Shown one piece after another: positions 32,100 through 63,564 of a DNA stretch of 64,000 bases. The stretch is from Pseudovirgaria hyperparasitica. Lineage: Eukaryota. How positions within the stretch are numbered: position 1 is the stretch's first letter; every line of letters begins with the position of its first letter. The translations under genes and the position numbers were made by a program. Location of the stretch: the NCBI GenBank assembly GCA_010093815.1, contig ML996575.1; one strand, written 5' to 3'. The notes below the pieces were generated by a model that saw only the letters and a list, made by a program, of their open reading frames with translations, ran no database searches and was not told the DNA's origin.

Positions 32100-33574
32100 T
32101 CATAAAATCCCACTCTTGACCGTAATGAATTCCATATCATCGACGCTTTTCACTCTTGGCATTGTCGCCTCTCCCTCCACTGAGGGTCTATGCGCAGTAT
32201 AGGTCTCTGTGCTGTTCATCCCCTGTTCACCATCACTGAAACTTTTCTCCCGCCCAAGAACGCCTAAACTGCTGAATGTCTCCACATGCGTAATGTCCAT
32301 CAGGCCAACCATCTTCTCCTTATCCAACGCCGTCTCACTAGCTGACGTCAAGCTCGCTGGCGACGTCTTGACCGTATACTGGAGCGGACGCATACCACCC
32401 AGTCTACTATCATTCCAGCTCTTACTGACTCTCGCATTTACCTTGGGCAAGATTGGAATCCAACGTGGACGATCGGACGTGGTATCAGACCTGTCGGAGA
32501 AGCTGAACGTGATGATATCGCGCGCTTGCGGAGACGTAGGCCAATTCCTGCGCATCCGGGCATCTTCTTCGTCCATGGGACGTGATATCCAGCGCATTAT
32601 GAGACCCCGCAGCGCAGGGATGCACGCGACGATGATCGCGACGTTGTTTTCGGCATGATTGATGCAAAATGTGATATTGTAGGTCCAGTCGTTTGCCTGG
32701 ATGTTGTAGAGACGGTCTTGGTATGTGAGGTGGATTTTTGCAGCGCCGATCGCGGTTACGCTGTTATGTGTTAATGAGGAAGTATTAGACATGGAGGTTG
32801 AGTATACCCTAGACTTGTCATGAAGAGAAATATAATTATGAAGCGGGTCCGGATGCTCGTTCGCTCCAATTTGCGCATCAAAAGGAATGGTATTGGAAGG
32901 ACGAGTAGGTCTGTTAGGAGGTTGGCGCTCGTCTGAAAGACTTGTACTTGCCCTATTCGTGGTCGATTCATGCAGTGTAGGTTGCCGAAGACGCGAGGCT
33001 TCCATGTGTTGCCTGTCTGTGGCGGACATTGGAAGATGAGTATTACGAACGGAATGATGCAAGCCAGTGCGTTGAAGGCGAATACCGCGTAGAGCGAGCG
33101 TCTGATGATTGGGAGGACAGATGAAACGCGCATGAGAAGGATGATGATGGAGGCTTTCACGAGAGGTAGGATCATAGTATTGAGCAGGTTGAACGAGAGC
33201 AAGATCTGGAATCTGTTAGTGTCCTCAGATACAATAGGCTCAAGAACACCCTACGATATGGAAGTCATCGTAGTTAGGTTCTATGCGTCGTTGATCAACG
33301 TGGTATATGTGAACTCCAAAGTGCCACATATGCACAAATCTGACGCTTGGATATATCAGTGCTATTGACAACACCTAGAAGAGTGTGAGTCATAGTTCGA
33401 GCTTCCTGCTTCAATCTCACTCACAGTTGCCAATATAATTGTATAATCGTCCCATCCTAAGTATGTCGCAAACTTTCTCCTTGAGAATATTCTGAGCGCG
33501 ACAAAACCAGCTGCCAACAAAGGCGTTCCTATGATAACGGCCAAACACACCTCTTGTAATGGATATGAGGGCAT
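32100..33574 (-). CDS. PTH11-like (fungal rhodopsin-domain) integral membrane protein
   Basis: VALRIFSR..LGWDDYTI, VKASIIILL, NLLTDLLVLPIP and ENNVAIIVACIPALR motifs; three introns. Confidence 0.88.
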
Positions 33575-50984: not shown

Positions 50985-52014
50985 ATGCCGAACAACGGGC
51001 AAGTCGCACTCGTAGTAGGAGCCTCCAGAGGCATAGGACGTCAGGTCGCTATAGACCTGGCGAAAAAAGGCTACAAGGGTATGCTTGGAACGAAAACCGG
51101 CATAGCTAAGAAACCCTTGCTGATATGAACCTAATAGTGGTTGTAGCCGCCAAAACAACCTCAAATGCCGCAGAACTCAAATCATTCCCTCCCGACCCAA
51201 ACTCATCACGATCCACGATAAGCACTGTAGCGCGCGAGATAAATGATGCCGGTGGAGAAGCCACAGCAGTGCCTGTAGATACGCGCGACTTTGCGAGTGT
51301 TCAACGAATGGTTGAGCAGGCAATCTGCGCGTATGGCGGGCTCGACGTTCTCGTATACAATTCTGGAGCGATATGGTGGGCCAGTGTGGAAGATACGCCC
51401 ATGAAGAGGTTCCAGTTAATGCAGCGAGTCAATGTGGAAGGCTTATATGGCACAGTCCAGGCTGTACTGCCCCATTTCGCCAATAATAGCTGGAAAGGCA
51501 GAATTATTGTCGTTAGCCCGCCGATCTACTCTAGGTTCTTCAGAGGCAAGACGGCTTATGCTATGGGCAAAGTCGGCATGTCTATTTTGACAAAGGGACT
51601 CGCCATGGACTGGATACGCCAAGGCAAAAATGACATGGCAATCACCAGTATCTGGCCTGCCGCTGCCATACAGTCTGCTGCGACGGCAGATCCAGCTATT
51701 CAGAAGGAGTTACGCAAAGCTGTACGGTCCGGAGGTGTCGTCATCCGTACCCGAGCTGACTTTTGCAGACAATATTTTCGGACGCGATCCTTGCTATGCT
51801 GGCAGCCCCAGCTGCCGAAGTGAACGGATGTCTTGAGCTTGACGAAGACTACCTTCGTAGCAAAGGCATCACTGACTTCAGCCAATATGCCCTCTTCCCA
51901 GGTGCATCTCCAAGACGCATCATGCCAGTCAAGCTCCCAGATCTTACAGTAGCCGAACAGGACGATGAAGGCCATAGAATAGACAGTGCCAGGTCTCGCG
52001 CGTCAAGATTGTAG
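50985..52014 (+). CDS. Short-chain dehydrogenase/reductase, HSDL2-like
   Basis: VALVVGASRGIG, LVYNSGA and YAMGK motifs; two introns. Confidence 0.9.
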
Positions 52015-53773: not shown

Positions 53774-54489
53774 ACGTAGACCCTAGGCCCGACTGCGATG
53801 ATCCACTCAGAATTGGTAGCCTGGGGCAGCAATAAATTGTCAGCGGGTAATATCAAATGACTTCTGACAGTATAACGCTGAGTAAATATCGGGCATGGAC
53901 TTAGCCGATCTGCAAACTAGCTACTGTCCAACTTAGAATATGGACATTGTTGACAAAGTTGGTAGATTCGAGAACTTTTTAATGGCAAGCACTAACCAAA
54001 AATCATCGATATGGTTACGTACGTTGTGTACATGTGTACAGTATTAAATGCGTGGACTCTTGTCCACTTTGTTGAAGATCATCACCGTGTCTAGTGGATC
54101 ATGCATTAACCTGGGCATTCTCAGAAAGCATAGAGTAACCAAGGGCACTAGATCTGCAATTCGGACGCACCATGACTTCAAGAGGCCTTTTGCGATGAAA
54201 ACCTCCGAATGCGCCTCGGTCCTCATGCCATCAGCGCTATCTGGGCTGCAAGGAGGGGCACTACTAAACAATCTGCCATAAACATAGGACTTTTTTGACC
54301 ATGCCCTAGCGAATCATACGCTGACCAGTACCACTGGCCTCGAGGGATCCGAGACGAACATCTACCTGGACCTACTGGAGACAGTTTGGACCTTTCGACA
54401 GGGAGGCCATAGCATCTCGTCTTGCTGGAGGACCCTATAGTTCAACGCTCCGATACTTGTATATTTGGTTCATCACACCAGCTTTCACT

Positions 54490-56624
54490 ATGACAGAAAT
54501 ATCAGGAATCGAGAGCCTATCAAGTGAAGAGGCACAAGCTCTTTTGTACGGCCGAATGCACCCATTACCACGCCTATCGAAGGCTCCAGAACAGAGTAAT
54601 GACATTTCTGAAGTTTTGGTCGTTGGAGTAAGTCCTCACGCATTTCTGTCGAATATATACTTACGAAAGCTACAGGCTGGCCCAGCGGGCCTGTTCATGA
54701 CTTTGAACCTCGCTCATTTGGGACTTACCGACACTTCTCTTCTATGTATCGATGCTAAATCTGGTCCGACACCCGCAGGCCATGCCGACGGCCTGAACGG
54801 ACGCACGCTGGAGATCTTTCGCACGGTCCAGATTGAAGGTGACATCCTCCGTGACGCCCCTAGTATATGCAGTTACGCATCCTGGTACCGGCCAAACGGT
54901 GACCCAGACAGCTTCCATAAGGGCTCCGAGCAGATCGCAAACACAGTAGCCCCAGCACGGTACGGTGATTATAAACTTATGCAACAAGGCCGTCTTGAGC
55001 GCGTCTTTTTGCGCGATCTCTTCGACTACTCGACGCGTGGTGTGCAGTATTCAACTCAGTTGGTTGACGTCAATCTTGACGAGACGGATCCGGAACGGCC
55101 AGTGACTGCAGTGGTAGAGACGGACGGACATCGAAGGACTCTACGGACGAAATATCTCATCGCTGCCGACGGTGCTCGGTCTGGCATCCGCCAGAAACTT
55201 AACATCGAGCAAGAAGGACAGAACTTACCTCGCGTATGGGGCGTCATCGACATTGTTGTCGACACCGACTTCCCGGACATACGCAAGTTTACTCAGCTGC
55301 CTGGGCACCTTGGTGAAGGGAGAGGGCACGCGTTCATCATCCCTCGCGAGAAGATGAGCAACGGCGAGCCGATGACACGGTTTTACGTCGACTTGACAGA
55401 CTATTCGGAGTCAACAGAGGGCATGTCGGACACGCGGGCATTCCGAGCGAGCATTACCGTCGACAAAATCATGAAGAAGGTGCGCGAGAAACTACACCCA
55501 TACCGCGTGGACATGAAGAAGGGCACACGACCGATCTGGTGGGCCGCGTACCCCATCGCTCAGAAAACGGCAAAGGAACAAATCGTGCGAGACTCCCAGA
55601 GCCACCCCCGAATCTTTCTCGCAGGCGACTGTACGTCACACCCTCCAAGTAAACCCCTTGCACCGCTAACTTGTCTTTCCCAGCAATGCACTCGCACTCA
55701 CCCTCTCAAGGCCTTGGCATGAACATGGGCATTCAAGACGCCTTTAACCTCTCCTGGAAACTTGCCTACGCTATACATGGCCTCACGGTCTCGCCAACCT
55801 CCCTGCTCGATACATACGAATCCGAGCGCCGCCCGGTCGCCCGCCGCCTCATCCACCTCGACCGCGTATGGAACTCGACCGGCAAGACAGAGCAGCCCAT
55901 CGAGGCGCGCCTGCACGACATGGCAGAGTACATGACCTGCTGCGGCATCGAGTACGGGCCCAGCATGCTCGTCTCGCAGCCCACCAGCGCCGCCGAGCAC
56001 GACTCCAATACCGCATCCCGTCCGCCCAATTCCGCGTCAACGGCGCATGGCCCTGTTTCCGGCACAGACTATCTTCACGGCGTCCTACGACCGGGCCGCC
56101 GTTTGCTCAATATCGCACTGCGACGGTTCGCCGATGGACATGGCTGGGACATACACGACGACTTGCGCGCCGACGGGCGGTACCGGGCTGTTGTGCTCGC
56201 CACAGTGAATTTTCCGCACGGGCTGCGAGATCGAAGCGCTGTGGCGCATGTGTGTGGTGCTACGGTACATGCGTTTGTGGCGGGAGGAGCTCCTATCGTC
56301 GAGGCGGTCATTGTGTATCCCGGTTCGGGGGAGTGTGGGTGGGGCTGGAGGGATGTACCGGAGGCTGTAAAGAAACATTGTGAAATGAGGGTTTACGGGG
56401 CGCAGAGGGAGGAGTATGAGAGGTATGGTGTGGATGTGGACAGAGGCGCTGTGGTTGTTGTGAGGCCGGATGGGGTTGTTGGGTGGGTGGGTGAGCTGGA
56501 TGATGTGCAAGTGATGGACGAGTTTCTTGGGCGGGTGCTGAGGAGAAAGAGTGTTGACGAGCTCGTGGACAGGAGCGAGGCGGTGGATTGTGATATTGGC
56601 AGTCGTGGAGTGCTGTGTGGGTGA
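54490..56624 (+). CDS. FAD-dependent phenol 2-monooxygenase-family aromatic hydroxylase
   Basis: VLVVGAGPAGL (spliced), ADGARS and LAGDSMHSHSP..GMNMGIQDAFNLSWKL motifs; C-terminal VVVRPDG thioredoxin-like domain. Confidence 0.9.
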
Positions 56625-56771
56625 GTTACCTAAGTACGTAGCAGTTGTTCCGAGGACAGCAGGGTCAAGAACGCATCCATTGCTCATCCTAGCATACAGC
56701 CAGCTACTCCATCTTCCGTCATACATTCATCGATCTATCTATACAATCGTCCATGCTTCATGATAACCCCC

Positions 56772-56894
56772 TCACATAACAACACACCAGCAACTCTCGT
56801 CACAGCCACAGCATTCACAAGACTCGCCACACGACGTCTTTGGCCCGGCGGGCTTGATGATGGATATGATGCTCGAAGCGGTGGATGGCGGCAT
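56772..56894 (-). CDS. 40-aa Cys-rich peptide with C-terminal CaaX box (not in the ORF track)
   Basis: MPPSTASSIISIIKPAGPKTSCGESCECCGCDESCWCVVM*. TATAAA at ~57121-57126, 5'UTR intron 57011-56947 (GTACGT..CTAAT..TAG), AAACATG start context. Confidence 0.75.
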   Translation of the reverse strand: MPPSTASSIISIIKPAGPKTSCGESCECCGCDESCWCVVM

Positions 56895-58481
56895 GTTTTC
56901 GAGCTTGACTTTGAAGATGTGGAAATGGAAGTGATTGGGACAGGTGCTATGTGAATGTTATTAGGAGGTGCCATGGGAATGTGTGTAATGAAGAGGGCAG
57001 ATAAGACGTACCGTGTGCGTTGTCTGTTTTGGGATGATATGTGTGTATGGCTGTGTATGTGTGTCTGTATGTCGAAGATGTAGTTATCTCACTCCACGAA
57101 CCACGAGCGCGCAGCCTGCCTTTATACACACTCGCTCATTCTTACATCCCACGTCCCAGCACAGCTCACGCCAGCACTTCCCATCAGGGAGGGACCCGCC
57201 AGACAGCCACAGCCACGCATGAAACGTGGTCTACGCAATTCGCTCGCCCATTTTCAGCTCGCCCATGCCCTGTGAATCCACTATCTGACCAATAACCCAC
57301 TCAACGTAGCTCGCCGCCGGTATACCGCATGCAGCAGCAGGTTTGTAGACTAGCGATTCATACCATACTATACCATACTATGCTGTATCACATCGCAAGG
57401 GCTGTCGTCAAAGCGCCATATCTTGACCGTATACATTTAGGTTCGTCGGGTTTGTCGGGCGGGGGCCTGTGAAGTTCACATTCCACTTTCGCGCCACTAT
57501 GGCCACGGCTTGCCTCTCTCTCATTAGAACGTATCCACGAAATGCCTCATGCTAGATAGAGTGGTGCGTTGGCATGCTGATACTGATGCCGATCTACTTC
57601 AATTTACCTACGCGTTCAGCAATCTGCCAGCAGTACTTAGTGAAAGGTCACGAGCTAAGCTTTCTGCCAAGACAGGGACTGAAGCTTGGTGAAGCTTACG
57701 CGTCGAGGGCCCCACTTGCTTGCTAAGGTTCTGCTGGGCACGCACAATGAGCTGCTGCTGCAGGGCAAGGGGGTGTTCTAGGTCTGGGTGATGCATGGGG
57801 TGTACGGGCTAGTGATTGGATGGCCTGGGTTGTGTATATATCCATGTGAGTTTGGCGGATACTGCGCTGCGGTACAGGCTTGGCATATCAGGAGGATGTT
57901 TATAGAGAGGCCTTGGAGAGGAGAGGATGTAGTCAAGGCATGCAACGCCTATGATGCTTTCTGTGGTAAATTTGGAAGAGCTGACTACAGAGAAGATGCA
58001 AGCTGCGGTCAAGTAATGGCGTTGTGAGTTGTGGGTGGATCCTGTGGCTGAAGGATGGACGGGAGACGCGTAGATGGGTGGATGCAGTACGGCTGAGCGG
58101 CATCGTGGTGTTTGTTTTGGCGTGTGCATGCCACACCTTTCCAGGGAGGCAGGAGGAGTGACATCTTCTCAGGTTGATGTAGTCGGATAGCTGGACATTG
58201 GGTGTGGATATGTTGCTAGTTATGGCTAGTGTAGCGCTGATTTATTGATAGCATGCATAAGGTGGACGCTCAGGACAAGTTTGGAGCATAGTACGACCTG
58301 TATCATGAAGATTGGGGGCTGATTAGAAATTTTGAATATGTGTGAGTCGACGCAAAACGCAGTCTACTTAGATGCTAATCTGACGCCCGAAAGATCTTGA
58401 ACACCATACCATGCAAGTCATCGTCCTATATACAAGGTATCTCCGATCGCTTACTTCTACCGTGCCAACCTGAACGCTTCC

Positions 58482-59514
58482 CTAGATCTTGTGTTTCGCA
58501 GGGTCGATCATGGGGTTGGAGCGCAGGAGTTTTGGTGCCAGCCTGATGTTGTACTCCATTGATAGCTCAGCGTGCTTGTCGCCCTGCAGAGGCACGAAGT
58601 CGACAACGAGGTCGTTCTTGACGGCAAAGACGGAGTCAATGCCAAGGTAGGGGTCGTTGCGTGGGTAGATCTGGTTGACGACGGTGCGGTAGTCCTCGTG
58701 GGTGATCATGAGATGAATATGGGCCGGTCGCCAGGGAGAGCGGTCCATGACATCGAGAAGAACACCAGCAGGGCCTAGGTGTGTGTGTTAGCTGAATGGT
58801 AGCATGGAAATTGCGGAAGCGTGCTTACCATCAGTAGGTAGTGAGTATGGAGTAGGCTTGAGACAGTAGAACCAGTACTCTCCATTCGCATCTGTCCTGA
58901 ACTTGCCCCTCAGATTGTTATCTGACTGGCCTTCAGGGTCTTGGAAGTCGTATTTGCCGTTGCTCGATGCCTGCCAGATGTCGACGACAGCATTCTTCAG
59001 CGGCTTCTGCGTAATCACATCAACGACACGACCGTGCATTTTTGTGACCTGGCCATTGTGAGGGTCTTGGATGATGCTGCCACCGATTTGGCGCCATGGT
59101 GCGTTTGGCGACCAGAAGGGGCCGAGAATTGTGGTTGATGTAGGGACTTCGCCGCTGTCAATGATGACCTTATTCGCGATCTCGTCGACGAGTCTGTAGG
59201 AAGACGAGAAGGGTGAGAACGTGTCGGCCAATCAGATAGGGGCTTGGCACTGCTTACGATTCTAGACCAATCACGTCACAGATGCGGTGGCCCTCATTCC
59301 TCTTGGGTGTGCTAATCTGTCCGATGGAGTTTAAGAATTGCACTCCCATCATCCATTCTTCAGTGGTCAGCTCGACTTCGCGCGCAAAGTCGTGGATATG
59401 CTTGATGAGGCTGCTGAGGACAACCTTTGCGCGTGGATTTGTCGCTGGACCAAAGGAGTCGAGGACTTGGGGAGTGAAGTCGGGGTCGAACTTGTTTGGG
59501 GCGGGAGCGGCCAT
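58482..59514 (-). CDS. Intradiol ring-cleavage dioxygenase, resembling fungal protocatechuate 3,4-dioxygenase (PrcA-like)
   Basis: [39 protein letters not shown] and WRPAHIH Fe ligands; two introns. Confidence 0.9.
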
Positions 59515-60219
59515 TGTGTGTGATTTGTGTGGTATGATAGATATCAGCTGGGGGAGCAGCGCAGTTGAACAGGAGAACCAGGCAGAGAGAACTGAGAAGG
59601 ACGAGAGAATTATCAATCTAGCACGACTCACGCGGCGCAGTTCACAGCTATATAAACAAAGGATGATTCCAGTGCAGCACCATGCCGTGCAGATAGGCCG
59701 GTCGGTTGTCACAGTCTGTACATCCAGTGCTTCACGGCAGATCTGTCGGCTAATAGTTCTTAGGGCTGCGGGTTGTCGGGGGCCCTGGACAACAAGCGAC
59801 AAGCAACGAGGAGAGAGTGGCATCATGCTCGCATAACAATAACGGTATCATGGCCGCATAATTGACGAAACACGGCGTAGGCTTTCATGGTCATCATCAC
59901 TCATCACTCATCACCATCACTTGCCGCTCCATTCGCCGAACACTCCTCAACTCAGGGAACCCCGCAGTCTGGTCTCATTAGCTGCTCCCCTGCCGTCAGC
60001 CCTCTATTACAACCCGCCTCTTAGCTCTCACTGCATGAACGAGTCACGACGTCGTCTTTTTCGGCTACTATTAATGGGATTTACGTCGCCGTGAATATCC
60101 GCCTTCAAATCATGAGGCGCCTAACTACTGGGTCTTCTCTTTGCTCAGCAACCTAGTTGCCTGTTGCTGTACAATATTTGGTGGAAGCGCAAGGCTCGAT
60201 TGATGCTTGTCGGCACAAC

Positions 60220-61411
60220 ATGCTGCATCATTTGATGGTTGGCACATGGACTCCTCCGGGCGCCATCTTCACATTCGAATTCGATGATGAGAAACTCACC
60301 TTGAAGCTTGTCAAGAAGACTGTCATACCGCATGATGAGCCTATATCATGGATGACCTTCAGTGTAAGCTTCCATCTCCACTTTCGACGGCACTGTGGCT
60401 TACAGAATGCAAAAGCATACCAAAAAGACCATATATGGCGCCGCCTTGAAGAAATGGTCAAGCTTCACCGTCAAGAGTCCGACAGAGATTGTACACAATG
60501 GGTCCTTTCCGATGGATCATGATCGTAGGTGTGCGTCTGAAACACCAGTCGCACTCGCTGACAAGTCCATCTAAGCTCGAGCATCCCAAGCAGACACCAG
60601 AACTCGTGCCATCTTTGTTCTTGCAGCAAAGAAGCCTCCATACAACGTCTACGGCAACCCATTCTACGAATATGCCGGACACGGGAACGTATTCTCAGTC
60701 ACCGATGAGGGAGCCTTAAAGGAGAATGTGCAGAATTACGAATACAATGAGCGTGCAGCCATCCACGGCATGGTCTTTGACTCACGCGAAGAGTACATGT
60801 ATTCCGCAGACATGTGGGACAACAAGATCTGGACGCATAAGAAGAACCCAGAGACCGGCCATTTGCACACGGTCGGCAGTGTCAATGCCCCTGCCTCAAA
60901 TGATCACCCCAGATGGGTTGCTCTTCATCCAAAAGACACGTATCTGTACGCCCTCATGGAATCTGGCAATCGTCTGGGCGTATATGTCATAGACGAACAG
61001 TCTCATCTGCCGATATTCACGTACATCACGTACCCCCTGCTACCACCTGGAATGGACAGGTCTTTCCCAAAGATGTATCGATCAGACGTCGTGTTCTTGT
61101 CACATAGTGCCAAGTATCTCTTTGCTACTGCACGATCCAATAGCGCCTCACTTACTGGGTATATCTCCGTGTTCGAGCTTGGTCCGTCCGGTAACATTGT
61201 GCGCCATATATGTATGAATCCTACACCAACTAGTGGAGGCCACTCCAATGCGATCAGTCCATGCGATTGGAGCGACGAATGGTATGCGCTTACCGATGAC
61301 GAAAAGGGTTTCATTGAGATATATCGCTGGAACGAAGGGTTTCTGGGAAGGGTCGCACATTGCGATGTTCCAGAGCCAGGCTTTGGGATGAATGCAATTT
61401 GGTATGATTAG
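60220..61411 (+). CDS. 3-carboxy-cis,cis-muconate cyclase (CMLE, beta-propeller)
   Basis: MLHHLMVGTWTPPGAIFTF.FDDE..EPISWMTF, IHGMVFD, HPRWV and GFGMNAIWYD match my recollection of Neurospora CMLE; two introns. Confidence 0.92.
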
Positions 61412-61890
61412 GCAAGAAAGCTGCATAGACGGAGATAGACGGCATGTATACGAAACAGAAAGATGTCATTATCCGAGTCGCGAGAACGTGCACATCTCAC
61501 CCAATGTGGCCGCCACCAACCAGCCGCCCTAAATGCCGAAGCCAGGGGCCGGGGTCTTCTCCGGACCTTAGCGTTAGCCTAGCGCAACTCCCCACATCTA
61601 GCCCAGCTTACCCTTACCCTCCTCTTCCCGTCCCCACCGTCAGGCCTCAGAGCTCTACCAAAGGCTGCACGTTGACGCAGATCGAGACCGCATACACTAA
61701 CCGGCAACCGGCTTCGGTCTGGTGGGCCTTCAGAGTGAAGATGAAAGATGGCGACCATCGATCATTCCAAAACAACAAACATCTCAAATCCAACCACTCG
61801 TCAAAACCTATGTGATTCAGATTCTCACCTTGCCGACCATACCTAGCGAATAAGCATTGCCACCGCACCAGATAAGTCCTTGACACGAAC

Positions 61891-63564
61891 ATGGCACCTC
61901 AAGCTGGCATTCTCTATGTAACGATGGCCCCCCAGGCATCACTGCCTGCAGCTCAATTCCACGATTGGTACGACAACGAACATGGTCCCCTTCGATTGCG
62001 CCTTCCCTACATCACGAATGGCTTCCGCTATCGTGCCAATGACATGGATGGGAAAGACCCGACAAAGGAGCCGGAATGGATGGCTGCATACGACGTGACA
62101 GACATGAATGAGATGACCAAGGAACAGTATACGAGGCTTCGCCGGGAACCAATACAGACACAACGAGAGCGGGATACAATGAAGCAGATCAAGGTGGACA
62201 GGAAATTTTACGATCTTGTACTTGTCCGTACATCATCAAATTTTGAAGATATAGAACAAATTGGTGCACAAACGAAGGACGTAGCGAGCGTGCTTGTTGC
62301 GCGTATATTCACCCTAAAAGAAGGAGCAAAGGACAAAGAAGAAGAGTTCCTGAAGTGGTACGACGAGGAGCATTTGCCCATGCTGGAGAAGGTTCCCGGT
62401 TGGCGTCGTGGACGTGTTTACAAGTCCAGCTCGATCGAGCCCGTCAATGAGGTGCAATATCTTGCTCTGCACAACTATCTACCGGAGAATGGCTTGGGAG
62501 GAGAGGAATTCCAAGCCGCCATATCAACACCATGGAAGAAAGACATCGTCGCGAATGTGATTGATGACAGGTCAAGGCGTACATTTGACTTGTACTACAC
62601 ATTCGGTCCAGCTCCACGAGATCTCGCAGCGCCAGCTTCCTTAGACGCGCTTGCGTCTTGGAACTACTCAGACGGCGTGACCAAAACATACAAGGAGAAA
62701 GAGCGTGCAATCGTGGAGTCGTATGTCACAACTGCTGATGGTGCGGTACTTCCCTATCGTCTTGAGGGCTCTACGAACCCAGAAGCTCCTCTGATCATTC
62801 TCTGCAACTCCGTGCTGGTGACATGGGGCATATGGGATGCATTCGTTGAACACTTCTTATCCGACCCCAAAAACCAACACTTCCGTATCCTGCGCTACAA
62901 CTCACGTGGCCGCACCGCAAACACCGGCTCCCAGAACATCACTCTCGATGTGCTCGCAGCCGACATAATCACCATTCTCGACGCTCTGCGCGTCCCGAAA
63001 GCCGCTAGTCTTTTCGGCGTTAGCCTCGGCGGCGCAACAGTTCTCAACGCCGCTCTCAAGTATCCGTCTCGCGTTGGCTCGTTCATCTCCTGCGATACTA
63101 ACTCCAAGTCGCCCGCAGGCAACAGCACAGCTTGGGCCGAACGCATCGATATCGCAGAGAAACAGGGCATCAAAGCGCAGTCTGGCGAGCCGTTGGTCGG
63201 CTCCGAGCTCGCCGAGAAGACGGTGCGTCGCTGGTTCGTCCCCGAGTCGTATGATGGCGGCGTTAGCGAGAAAGAGATCCAGCGCGTCAAGGACATGGTA
63301 GCAAGCAACAGCCTAGATGGCTTCAAGAAGGGCGTCAGAGCACTGTTCGACTACGACGTGGAAGGTCTCATGCGATCCTCCAAGGTAAAGGGTGCATTTG
63401 TCGTCGGCGCGGGAGATGGTGTGCTGCCGAAAACGATGGCGGAGATGGCGAAGAACTACGGAGACGGTGTTCATTTGGCGGTCATCGATGGTGCGGGACA
63501 TTTGCCTATGGTTGAGAAACCGAGGGAATTTGCAGACGTGGTGGAGAGATTTATGGCTGGCTAG
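61891..63564 (+). CDS. EthD-like x2 + alpha/beta-hydrolase fusion (3-carboxymuconolactone hydrolase/decarboxylase or enol-lactonase-like)
   Basis: Two WY..EH repeats (FHDWYDNEH, FLKWYDEEH); hydrolase GVSLGG and GAGHLP motifs; intronless 557-aa ORF. Confidence 0.85.
   Translation: MAPQAGILYVTMAPQASLPAAQFHDWYDNEHGPLRLRLPYITNGFRYRANDMDGKDPTKEPEWMAAYDVTDMNEMTKEQYTRLRREPIQTQRERDTMKQIKVDRKFYDLVLVRTSSNFEDIEQIGAQTKDVASVLVARIFTLKEGAKDKEEEFLKWYDEEHLPMLEKVPGWRRGRVYKSSSIEPVNEVQYLALHNYLPENGLGGEEFQAAISTPWKKDIVANVIDDRSRRTFDLYYTFGPAPRDLAAPASLDALASWNYSDGVTKTYKEKERAIVESYVTTADGAVLPYRLEGSTNPEAPLIILCNSVLVTWGIWDAFVEHFLSDPKNQHFRILRYNSRGRTANTGSQNITLDVLAADIITILDALRVPKAASLFGVSLGGATVLNAALKYPSRVGSFISCDTNSKSPAGNSTAWAERIDIAEKQGIKAQSGEPLVGSELAEKTVRRWFVPESYDGGVSEKEIQRVKDMVASNSLDGFKKGVRALFDYDVEGLMRSSKVKGAFVVGAGDGVLPKTMAEMAKNYGDGVHLAVIDGAGHLPMVEKPREFADVVERFMAG

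Follow-up and report, generated by a model that had tools for sequence, protein, structure and literature searches.

A 40-amino-acid, cysteine-rich peptide ending in a CaaX box is encoded on the minus strand of contig ML996575.1 of Pseudovirgaria hyperparasitica (NCBI GenBank assembly GCA_010093815.1), within a stretch of 64,000 nucleotides that was analysed as a whole and is referred to here as the window. The micro-gene is spliced, TATA-driven, under purifying selection, and conserved across a fungal class, and we regard it as a genuine gene with near certainty. Its product very likely belongs to the same family as the peptides described in Leotiomycetes as a putative a-factor. The leading functional reading, held tentatively and by analogy, is that the peptide may be an a-type lipopeptide pheromone precursor or a pheromone-pathway signal. 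The micro-gene and its product comprise the following parts:

56772..56894, minus strand: coding sequence (CDS) of the 40-aa peptide, ATG to TGA, with the stop codon at 56772-56774
56895..56946, minus strand: second exon of the 5′ untranslated region (5′UTR), 52 nt, with A at position -3 of the ATG in the context AAAACATGC
56947..57011, minus strand: 5′UTR intron, 65 nt, GTACGT...CTAAT...ATAG
57012..57095, minus strand: first 5′UTR exon, its upstream end assumed to lie about 30 nt below the TATA box
57121..57126, minus strand: TATAAA box, 232 nt upstream of the ATG
Residues 1-15: N-terminal module (N-module), MPxS..SS..I[IV]KP
Residues 16-21: variable spacer
Residues 22-36: Cys core, CGE.C.CCG..ESC.
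Residues 37-40: CaaX box, CVVM

The open reading frame (ORF) translates to MPPSTASSIISIIKPAGPKTSCGESCECCGCDESCWCVVM, followed by a stop. A preliminary description of this DNA, made from the letters alone, had reported the minus-strand ORF, the TATAAA box, and the 65-nt 5′UTR intron, and each lies where it was placed; the seven Cys in the last 19 residues and the CVVM end were likewise read correctly. These Cys occupy residues 22, 26, 28, 29, 31, 35, and 37, which amounts to 17.5% of the whole peptide (7/40) and 7/19 of the core region, and the TGA stop directly follows CVVM. The N-terminus is Ser-rich and non-hydrophobic, and the precursor is short and lacks a signal peptide. While a neighbouring 557-aa protein of the window is present in NCBI/UniRef, the exact 40-aa peptide is absent from a collection of 15 billion proteins; the gene is thus unannotated within an annotated genome, as the same description had proposed.

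Direct support for the gene structure comes from contigs of two public runs, which join 56946 to 57012, omitting precisely the 65-nt intron, and show no other difference from the window over 930 aligned bases. The skipped segment ends in CT..AC on the plus strand, equivalent to GT..AG on the minus strand. The two runs belong to one sample of one study, and their library type is not on record. The contigs presumably derive from RNA, and thus from a spliced transcript, or, if they are DNA, from a precise intron-less allele; the intron boundaries and the strand are supported in either case. From the TATA box down to the start codon there is one further ATG, at 56974; it sits in the intron, and the spliced leader is ATG-free.

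An index-free phmmer scan of 1.84 billion protein-cluster representatives (E ≤ 1e-3) recovered 15 representatives, all with the same peptide at the C-terminus. Thirteen end in C-a-a-M/Q, and P0010 and P0012 are gene models running beyond, or broken within, the CaaX box; the long members are ORF calls extended upward through the 5′UTR. A scan of metagenome contigs, using two peptide patterns drawn from the core and the CaaX box, one of which contained the CaaX, yielded 40 loci, in 39 of which the frame is intact to the CaaX box and then stops. The pattern-free phmmer set shows the same invariant columns as the pattern-found loci. Start and stop are both conserved in 38 of the 40, the exceptions being L035, which is cut off by the contig end, and L026 (117-164), whose copy is intact except for an in-frame TAA after IIKP, due to a nonsense variant or to misassembly. 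After trimming to the conserved ATG, the relatives measure 30-43 aa. All named members are Dothideomycetes, from at least ten genera, including Pyrenophora (three species), Alternaria, Stemphylium, Plenodomus, Ascochyta, Venturia, Phyllosticta, and Macrophomina, a range that suggests a Dothideomycete origin for the window as well. The ESM Atlas gave sub-threshold leads only (best 0.82, a 56-aa Ascomycota cluster). The preliminary description had proposed looking in related genomes for the ORF, its Cys spacing, and its CaaX box, and these are carried by the 15 protein representatives and the 40 metagenome loci.

In the databases, members go by the label hypothetical or uncharacterized, borrow the name of a downstream dehydrogenase, or are joined to it in one model ("gluconate 5-dehydrogenase", "NAD(P)-binding protein"). 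Several public models are wrong (P0004, P0010, P0021, P0012, P0027, and P0020): "gluconate 5-dehydrogenase" is the name given to a 39-aa peptide, the micro-gene and the downstream short-chain dehydrogenase/reductase (SDR) form single models of 149 aa, and others read on beyond the CaaX stop.

Substitution patterns were computed from 39 CDS including that of the window (L026 and L035 dropped), comprising 27 distinct DNA and 21 distinct protein sequences. The mean proportion of synonymous differences (pS) was 0.528 and that of nonsynonymous differences (pN) 0.166, with pN below pS in 343 of 351 pairs. Split by region, pN/pS was lowest in the core with the CaaX box (0.13), intermediate in residues 1-15 (0.46), and highest in the spacer, residues 16-21 (0.85). 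Synonymous sites are close to saturated, and the Cys core hardly varies. Of the six invariant Cys, all but residue 28 are encoded by TGC in some sequences and by TGT in others. Across 33 aligned variants, C22, E24, C26, C28, C29, G30, E33, C35, and C37 are invariant and M1, S7, K14, P15, G23, S34, and M40 nearly so; position 31 varies (C, A, I, L, V, M, or F), and Trp36 is present in most members. AlphaFold2 run on the 33 sequences returned a mean predicted local distance difference test (pLDDT) score of 49.6, no secondary structure, and no usable model.

The gene structure is shared by relatives as well. Among 25 representative loci, several of them closely related, TATA[AT]A occurs at -202 to -252 in 17, and an intron of 48-66 nt that satisfies a strict pattern, with 5-52 nt left between its end and the ATG, is likewise found in 17; the remaining eight have relaxed intron candidates only. 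These data bear on the view that there is no functional coding gene here, merely a chance ORF in transcribed or untranscribed spacer. ORFs of 40 codons are common, five other window ORFs of 15-110 aa end in a loose C-a-a-X, and one of the 40 loci has the in-frame stop noted above, so a short CaaX ORF alone is not beyond chance; it is conservation that lifts the micro-gene above it. A chance ORF would not be expected to persist as a peptide across at least ten Dothideomycete genera with a coding pattern of substitution, a start and stop kept in nearly all loci, a conserved TATA box, intron, and promoter, and an intron removed exactly in the run contigs. The chance reading is refuted in practice, and we give it almost no credence. 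A further candidate in the window, a 19-aa MP...CGVS ORF resembling an a-factor (MPKTTSRSSSRASLRCGVS; 32597-32656, minus strand), was rejected as chance, lying out of frame inside a 371-aa ORF (32100-33215, minus strand).

The nearest described relatives are the "putative a-factor" peptides reported from 111 Leotiomycetes, including Botrytis cinerea BCIN_13g03330 (Wilson, Coetzee, Wingfield & Wingfield 2023, PLoS One, PMC10569646). That family was reached by screening seven genomes for annotated proteins that have a CaaX box and at most 100 aa, and, according to the same article, no a-factor had until then been found outside Sordariomycetes, while the receptor and the alpha-type pheromone are more widely conserved in filamentous ascomycetes than the known a-type (PMC10569646). 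The Leotiomycete pattern, as given in its supplement, is ...PGSAASSTISSIVKP-spacer-C.ECDG..CCCIPIPC[TV]VM. As in the peptides described here, these are short ORFs, unannotated or "hypothetical", without a signal peptide, in which a Ser/Thr-rich run and S-I-[VI]-K-[PG] precede a short variable spacer, 6-7 Cys, and a C[VTI]VM end, with very high conservation within the class. SIVKP, IVKG, or SIIKP follows the Ser-rich run in 95 of the 111 sequences, and the window N-module STASSIISIIKP shares this Ser-rich and S-I-[VI]-K-[PG] feature, judged by eye and without an alignment score. For example, the A. pellizariae sequence has an MPPS start, AASIISSIVKP, and CGE, where the window has MPPSTASSIISIIKP...CGE.

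The two groups differ in length and, above all, in the core. Leotiomycete peptides are 44-64 aa long, and most carry an extra N-terminal MCTS..LVNRNG before the common module. Their core reads C.EC-DG[YFV].-CCC-IP(IP)-C, in contrast to CGE.C.CCG..ESC.C in the Dothideomycete peptides: CCCIP, which 110 of the 111 Leotiomycete sequences contain, is absent from all 33 Dothideomycete variants, and CGE is found in one of the 111. From this comparison we judge the N-module and overall architecture to be homologous with the Leotiomycete family and the Cys core to have been rebuilt. The Dothideomycete form is a variant, in a second fungal class, of a published family of putative function. With its own core, conserved 5′UTR intron, and promoter block, it appears to be unreported in the literature searched: the family motif strings were not found there, the portions of two Dothideomycete papers that were available (PMC4227064 and PMC5554195) report no a-type pheromone precursor, and none of the works citing PMC10569646 concerns Dothideomycetes, judging by their titles.

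Sordariomycete a-factors have a genetically proven pheromone function. Those of Neurospora (mfa-1), Sordaria (ppg2), Podospora, and Gibberella are, like the window peptide, short and without a signal peptide, and they resemble it in an MP plus Ser/Thr start (MP-S-T then Ser/Thr/Ala in the a-factors) and a CVVM/CTVM end; the residue before the CaaX Cys is aromatic in both groups, Tyr in the Sordariomycete a-factors and Trp or Tyr in most members here. The MPST start with further Ser/Thr and the CVVM/CTVM end are printed in the S2 file of PMC10569646, and the preliminary description's statement that Neurospora mfa-1 ends in CVVM agrees with that supplement. The differences are that Sordariomycete a-factors have 21-24 aa and a single Cys, while the window peptide has 40 aa and its family 38-41 aa and 6-7 Cys; no sequence search links the family to them.

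By analogy with these a-factors, the precursor would be made in the cytosol without a signal peptide, and farnesyltransferase would farnesylate Cys37 of CVVM, in which X is Met as in Neurospora mfa-1. Enzymes of the Ste24/Rce1 and Ste14 types would then cleave off VVM and methylate the exposed C-terminus, and the N-terminal module would be trimmed. The resulting lipopeptide would be exported by a Ste6-type ATP-binding cassette (ABC) transporter and sensed by a Ste3/Pre1-type receptor, serving as an a-type pheromone or pheromone-pathway signal of Dothideomycetes, and the invariant Cys core would fix the shape of the mature lipopeptide through disulfides or bound metal. To judge from the sequence and established CaaX biochemistry, farnesylation and CaaX processing of the peptide are probable. 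The later steps, export and receptor activation, we infer by analogy, and action as a Ste3-type ligand is a tentative proposal that we hold to be somewhat less than an even prospect. The pheromone reading is ranked first because of the precursor architecture, the ends resembling those of proven a-factors, the elimination argument of PMC10569646, and a weak promoter signal.

That promoter signal comes from 21 promoters of the family, in which the HMG core CTTTGW occurs in 14 (7.2 ± 2.2 in shuffles) and TGAAAC in nine (4.1 ± 1.9 in shuffles). The preliminary description had also taken one TGAAAC at 57220 as resembling a Ste12 pheromone response element (PRE). This hexamer is at chance level: the window contains 38 TGAAAC against 33.0 ± 5.3 expected, so that a single copy carries no weight, and the position of the hexamer is not conserved among loci. 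On the minus strand, positions 57204..57225 read GTTTCA (TGAAAC on the plus strand, 57220-57225) and then GCGTGGCTGTGGCTG, of which the GCGTGG part aligns with a block common to other loci (GAGGCGGTGCGTGG).

Several points weigh against the pheromone reading. The promoter enrichments are weak, since the shuffles were simple and the loci are related, and the conservation of motifs among the metagenome loci is partly by construction, because they were found with core and CaaX patterns. The single-copy Sordariomycete and yeast a-factors printed in PMC10569646 have only the CaaX Cys. In this family, members of Pleosporales, Botryosphaeriales, and Venturia type differ hardly at all in their last 19 residues, which are more tightly conserved than the printed Sordariomycete a-factors are among themselves. 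The kinship with the Leotiomycete peptides was recognized by eye, word-indexed and phmmer searches having reached no Leotiomycete member, and the Gly-Tyr motif that Wilson et al. treat as an a-factor mark is absent here. The Leotiomycete peptides are themselves of unclear function in the words of their own authors: their expression is high, not mating-type dependent, and highest in Botrytis sclerotia, their sequence is almost identical across genera, and the authors take both expression and near-identity as arguing against a classical pheromone (PMC10569646). The pheromone proposal of the preliminary description thus stands in part, at family level, through the N-module and architecture shared with the Leotiomycete "putative a-factor" and through the MP plus Ser/Thr start and CVVM/CTVM end, and is opposed in part by the evidence that those authors list.

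The same observations can be read in terms of metal chemistry. The peptide could be a farnesyl-anchored metal-thiolate micropeptide that binds Cu(I) or Zn(II) on the cytosolic side of a membrane through its six invariant Cys, as a monomer or a dimer, with a role in metal buffering, delivery, or sensing and not as a pheromone. The six Cys are invariant in all 33 variants in a CxC/CC arrangement, with G23, E24, G30, E33, and S34 conserved between them, and the very low pN/pS of the core (0.13, with saturated synonymous sites) is more in keeping with a chemical constraint than with co-evolution alongside a receptor. The AlphaFold prediction, in which no ligand-free fold appears, is as might be expected of an apo metal peptide, and the high, mating-type-independent expression of the Leotiomycete relatives with its sclerotial peak points the same way (PMC10569646). 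Fungal copper metallothioneins resemble the peptide in being small, with CxC and CC motifs and no predicted metal-free fold, but differ from it in that a CaaX end, acidic residues, and a conserved Trp are found here, and no Pfam match.

Against the metal reading, the window peptide has no match at E ≤ 10 in Pfam, metallothionein families included. Among 14 members scanned, the sole Pfam match was to the spider-toxin family D_CNTX (two members, E 0.022), and a profile search of the PDB returned one weak match to a Cys-rich spider toxin (E 0.05), which we read as noise from Cys-rich composition. The mostly conserved Trp and several acidic residues of the peptide are untypical of fungal metallothioneins, Cys makes up 17.5% of the whole peptide, and a farnesyl group would block the CaaX Cys, leaving 5-6 thiols. 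Cu, Zn, metal response element (MRE), and stress response element (STRE) motifs, Mac1-, Ace1-, and ZafA-type sites among them, were not enriched in the 21 promoters. The Cys core is arranged differently in Leotiomycetes, so there is no single fixed metal site across the wider family. A prenylated fungal metallothionein is not described among the literature matches listed, and we know of no metallothionein with a CaaX end. The metallothionein-like character given to the core in the preliminary description finds no support in Pfam (E ≤ 10) or in metal-motif enrichment, though the six invariant Cys leave it some probability. Overall, we consider a metal-thiolate role unlikely, though worth keeping in view, and would assign the same low probability to the broader proposal that no part of the Leotiomycete-Dothideomycete family is a pheromone and that it represents the first metal-thiolate micropeptide tethered to a membrane by prenylation, a farnesylated metallothionein-like protein. 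If that were true, the published a-factor assignment would be mistaken and the true a-type pheromone of both classes still undiscovered. The word "metallothionein" is absent from the main text of PMC10569646 in the form available.

A somewhat less probable alternative is that the peptide is a multiply lipidated membrane micropeptide, neither secreted nor metal-binding, with farnesyl on Cys37 and S-palmitoyl groups on nearby Cys (Cys35 and the CC pair). In that case the core would serve as no more than a strong membrane anchor, and the conserved 15-residue Ser-rich N-module would be the working part, such as a regulator or a phospho-site at the membrane. Ras-type proteins carry palmitoyl-plus-farnesyl anchors, and the C-x-C-a-a-X arrangement of the peptide resembles them. 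The N-module is itself under selection (pN/pS 0.46) and is common to the Leotiomycete family, whose core differs, as would suit a working part. The MUB proteins, which are prenylated and anchored in the plasma membrane, offer an established precedent (PMC4996978). Like MUB and Ras-type tails, the family has further Cys ahead of the CaaX box. MUB proteins have a ubiquitin fold of about 120 aa ahead of the tail, whereas the window peptide has 40 aa in all and no Pfam domain or predicted fold; only 15 conserved residues precede the core, and the residues between the Cys are conserved beyond what an anchor needs. A pure lipid anchor would not require the invariant Gly, Glu, and Ser between the Cys, and no binder of the N-module is known.

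A similar tail, GGCGES...CGESCGCTVL, is found in the ubiquitin-fold protein P0038, which favours the lipid reading, but the family profile matches P0038 without significance (E 4.2 among 5.8 billion sequences). In P0038 (81 aa, NCBI, from a 380-nt contig), a PF00240 domain (E 5e-9) leads through GG into a Cys-rich tail that contains CGES twice and ends in CTVL; the protein looks like a MUB-like prenylated ubiquitin-fold protein. Five proteins of Diaporthales (Sordariomycetes), from Diaporthe and Discula (P0035, P0036, P0037, P0039, and P0040) end in ...LRGG-CGES.DCCG.TESCGCC, without the N-module and without a CaaX box (E 0.16-5.9). Two others share the Cys core only: P0025, which ends in CGESCGCCGLGESCYCTIL, and P0034, a 32-aa form ending in CVVM. 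Such core-only proteins may represent a broader family with Cys-rich tails of the CGES type. Canonical a-factors are known from Diaporthales, and for this reason the kinship of the Diaporthales proteins bears on the pheromone reading.

Further upstream, the window contains a distal promoter module corresponding to a block that relatives keep at about -690 to -560:

57540..57700, minus strand: distal promoter module
57697-57692, 57687-57682, and 57662-57657, minus strand: three AAGCTT within the module
57660-57654, minus strand: GCTTAGC within the module
57550-57540, minus strand: ATGAGGCATTT within the module

In the relatives (L002, L012, L028, L036, L037, and others), the block reads CATTCAC.GCCAAG ... 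AGCTTGGCAAAGCTTGTG ... GTGAGGCATTT ... CAAAGCTTGGT ... GCTTAGCCACGCAAT and is followed by CCAAT boxes and GAGGCGGTGCGTGG; AAAGCTT is present in 14 of 21 promoters. The window holds pieces of the block in an order that differs from that of the relatives. The block contains no tRNA and matches no meaningful Rfam family (one match, E 0.85).

In 14 loci (L001-L004, L008, L010-L014, L018, L020, L026, and L037), the micro-gene is followed on its own strand, at a distance of 425-806 nt, by an SDR gene. Such a gene is missing next to the window copy, for which the nearest SDR (51110-51820, plus strand) is only about 30% identical, and the synteny that the preliminary description had suggested examining therefore reveals no fixed partner. 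In the window, the micro-gene sits inside an aromatic-catabolism neighbourhood (54325-63561), which is not common to the loci of relatives:

54325-56624, plus strand: phenol-hydroxylase-type flavin adenine dinucleotide (FAD) monooxygenase, convergent with the micro-gene, in two ORF pieces
58791-59847, minus strand: intradiol dioxygenase
60575-61408, plus strand: lactonase
61891-63561, plus strand: alpha/beta hydrolase

Returning to the pheromone reading, the gene provides a single, class-wide a-type pheromone candidate with defined parts, each of them open to mutation. Dothideomycetes include many major crop pathogens, and their sexual cycles drive epidemics and recombination. That the Leotiomycete family would reach a second class with a rebuilt core sharpens the question of whether these peptides are pheromones. 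The peptide may be a pheromone that matures into a farnesylated knot locked by metal or disulfides, and fungal pheromones would then gain a new structural class.

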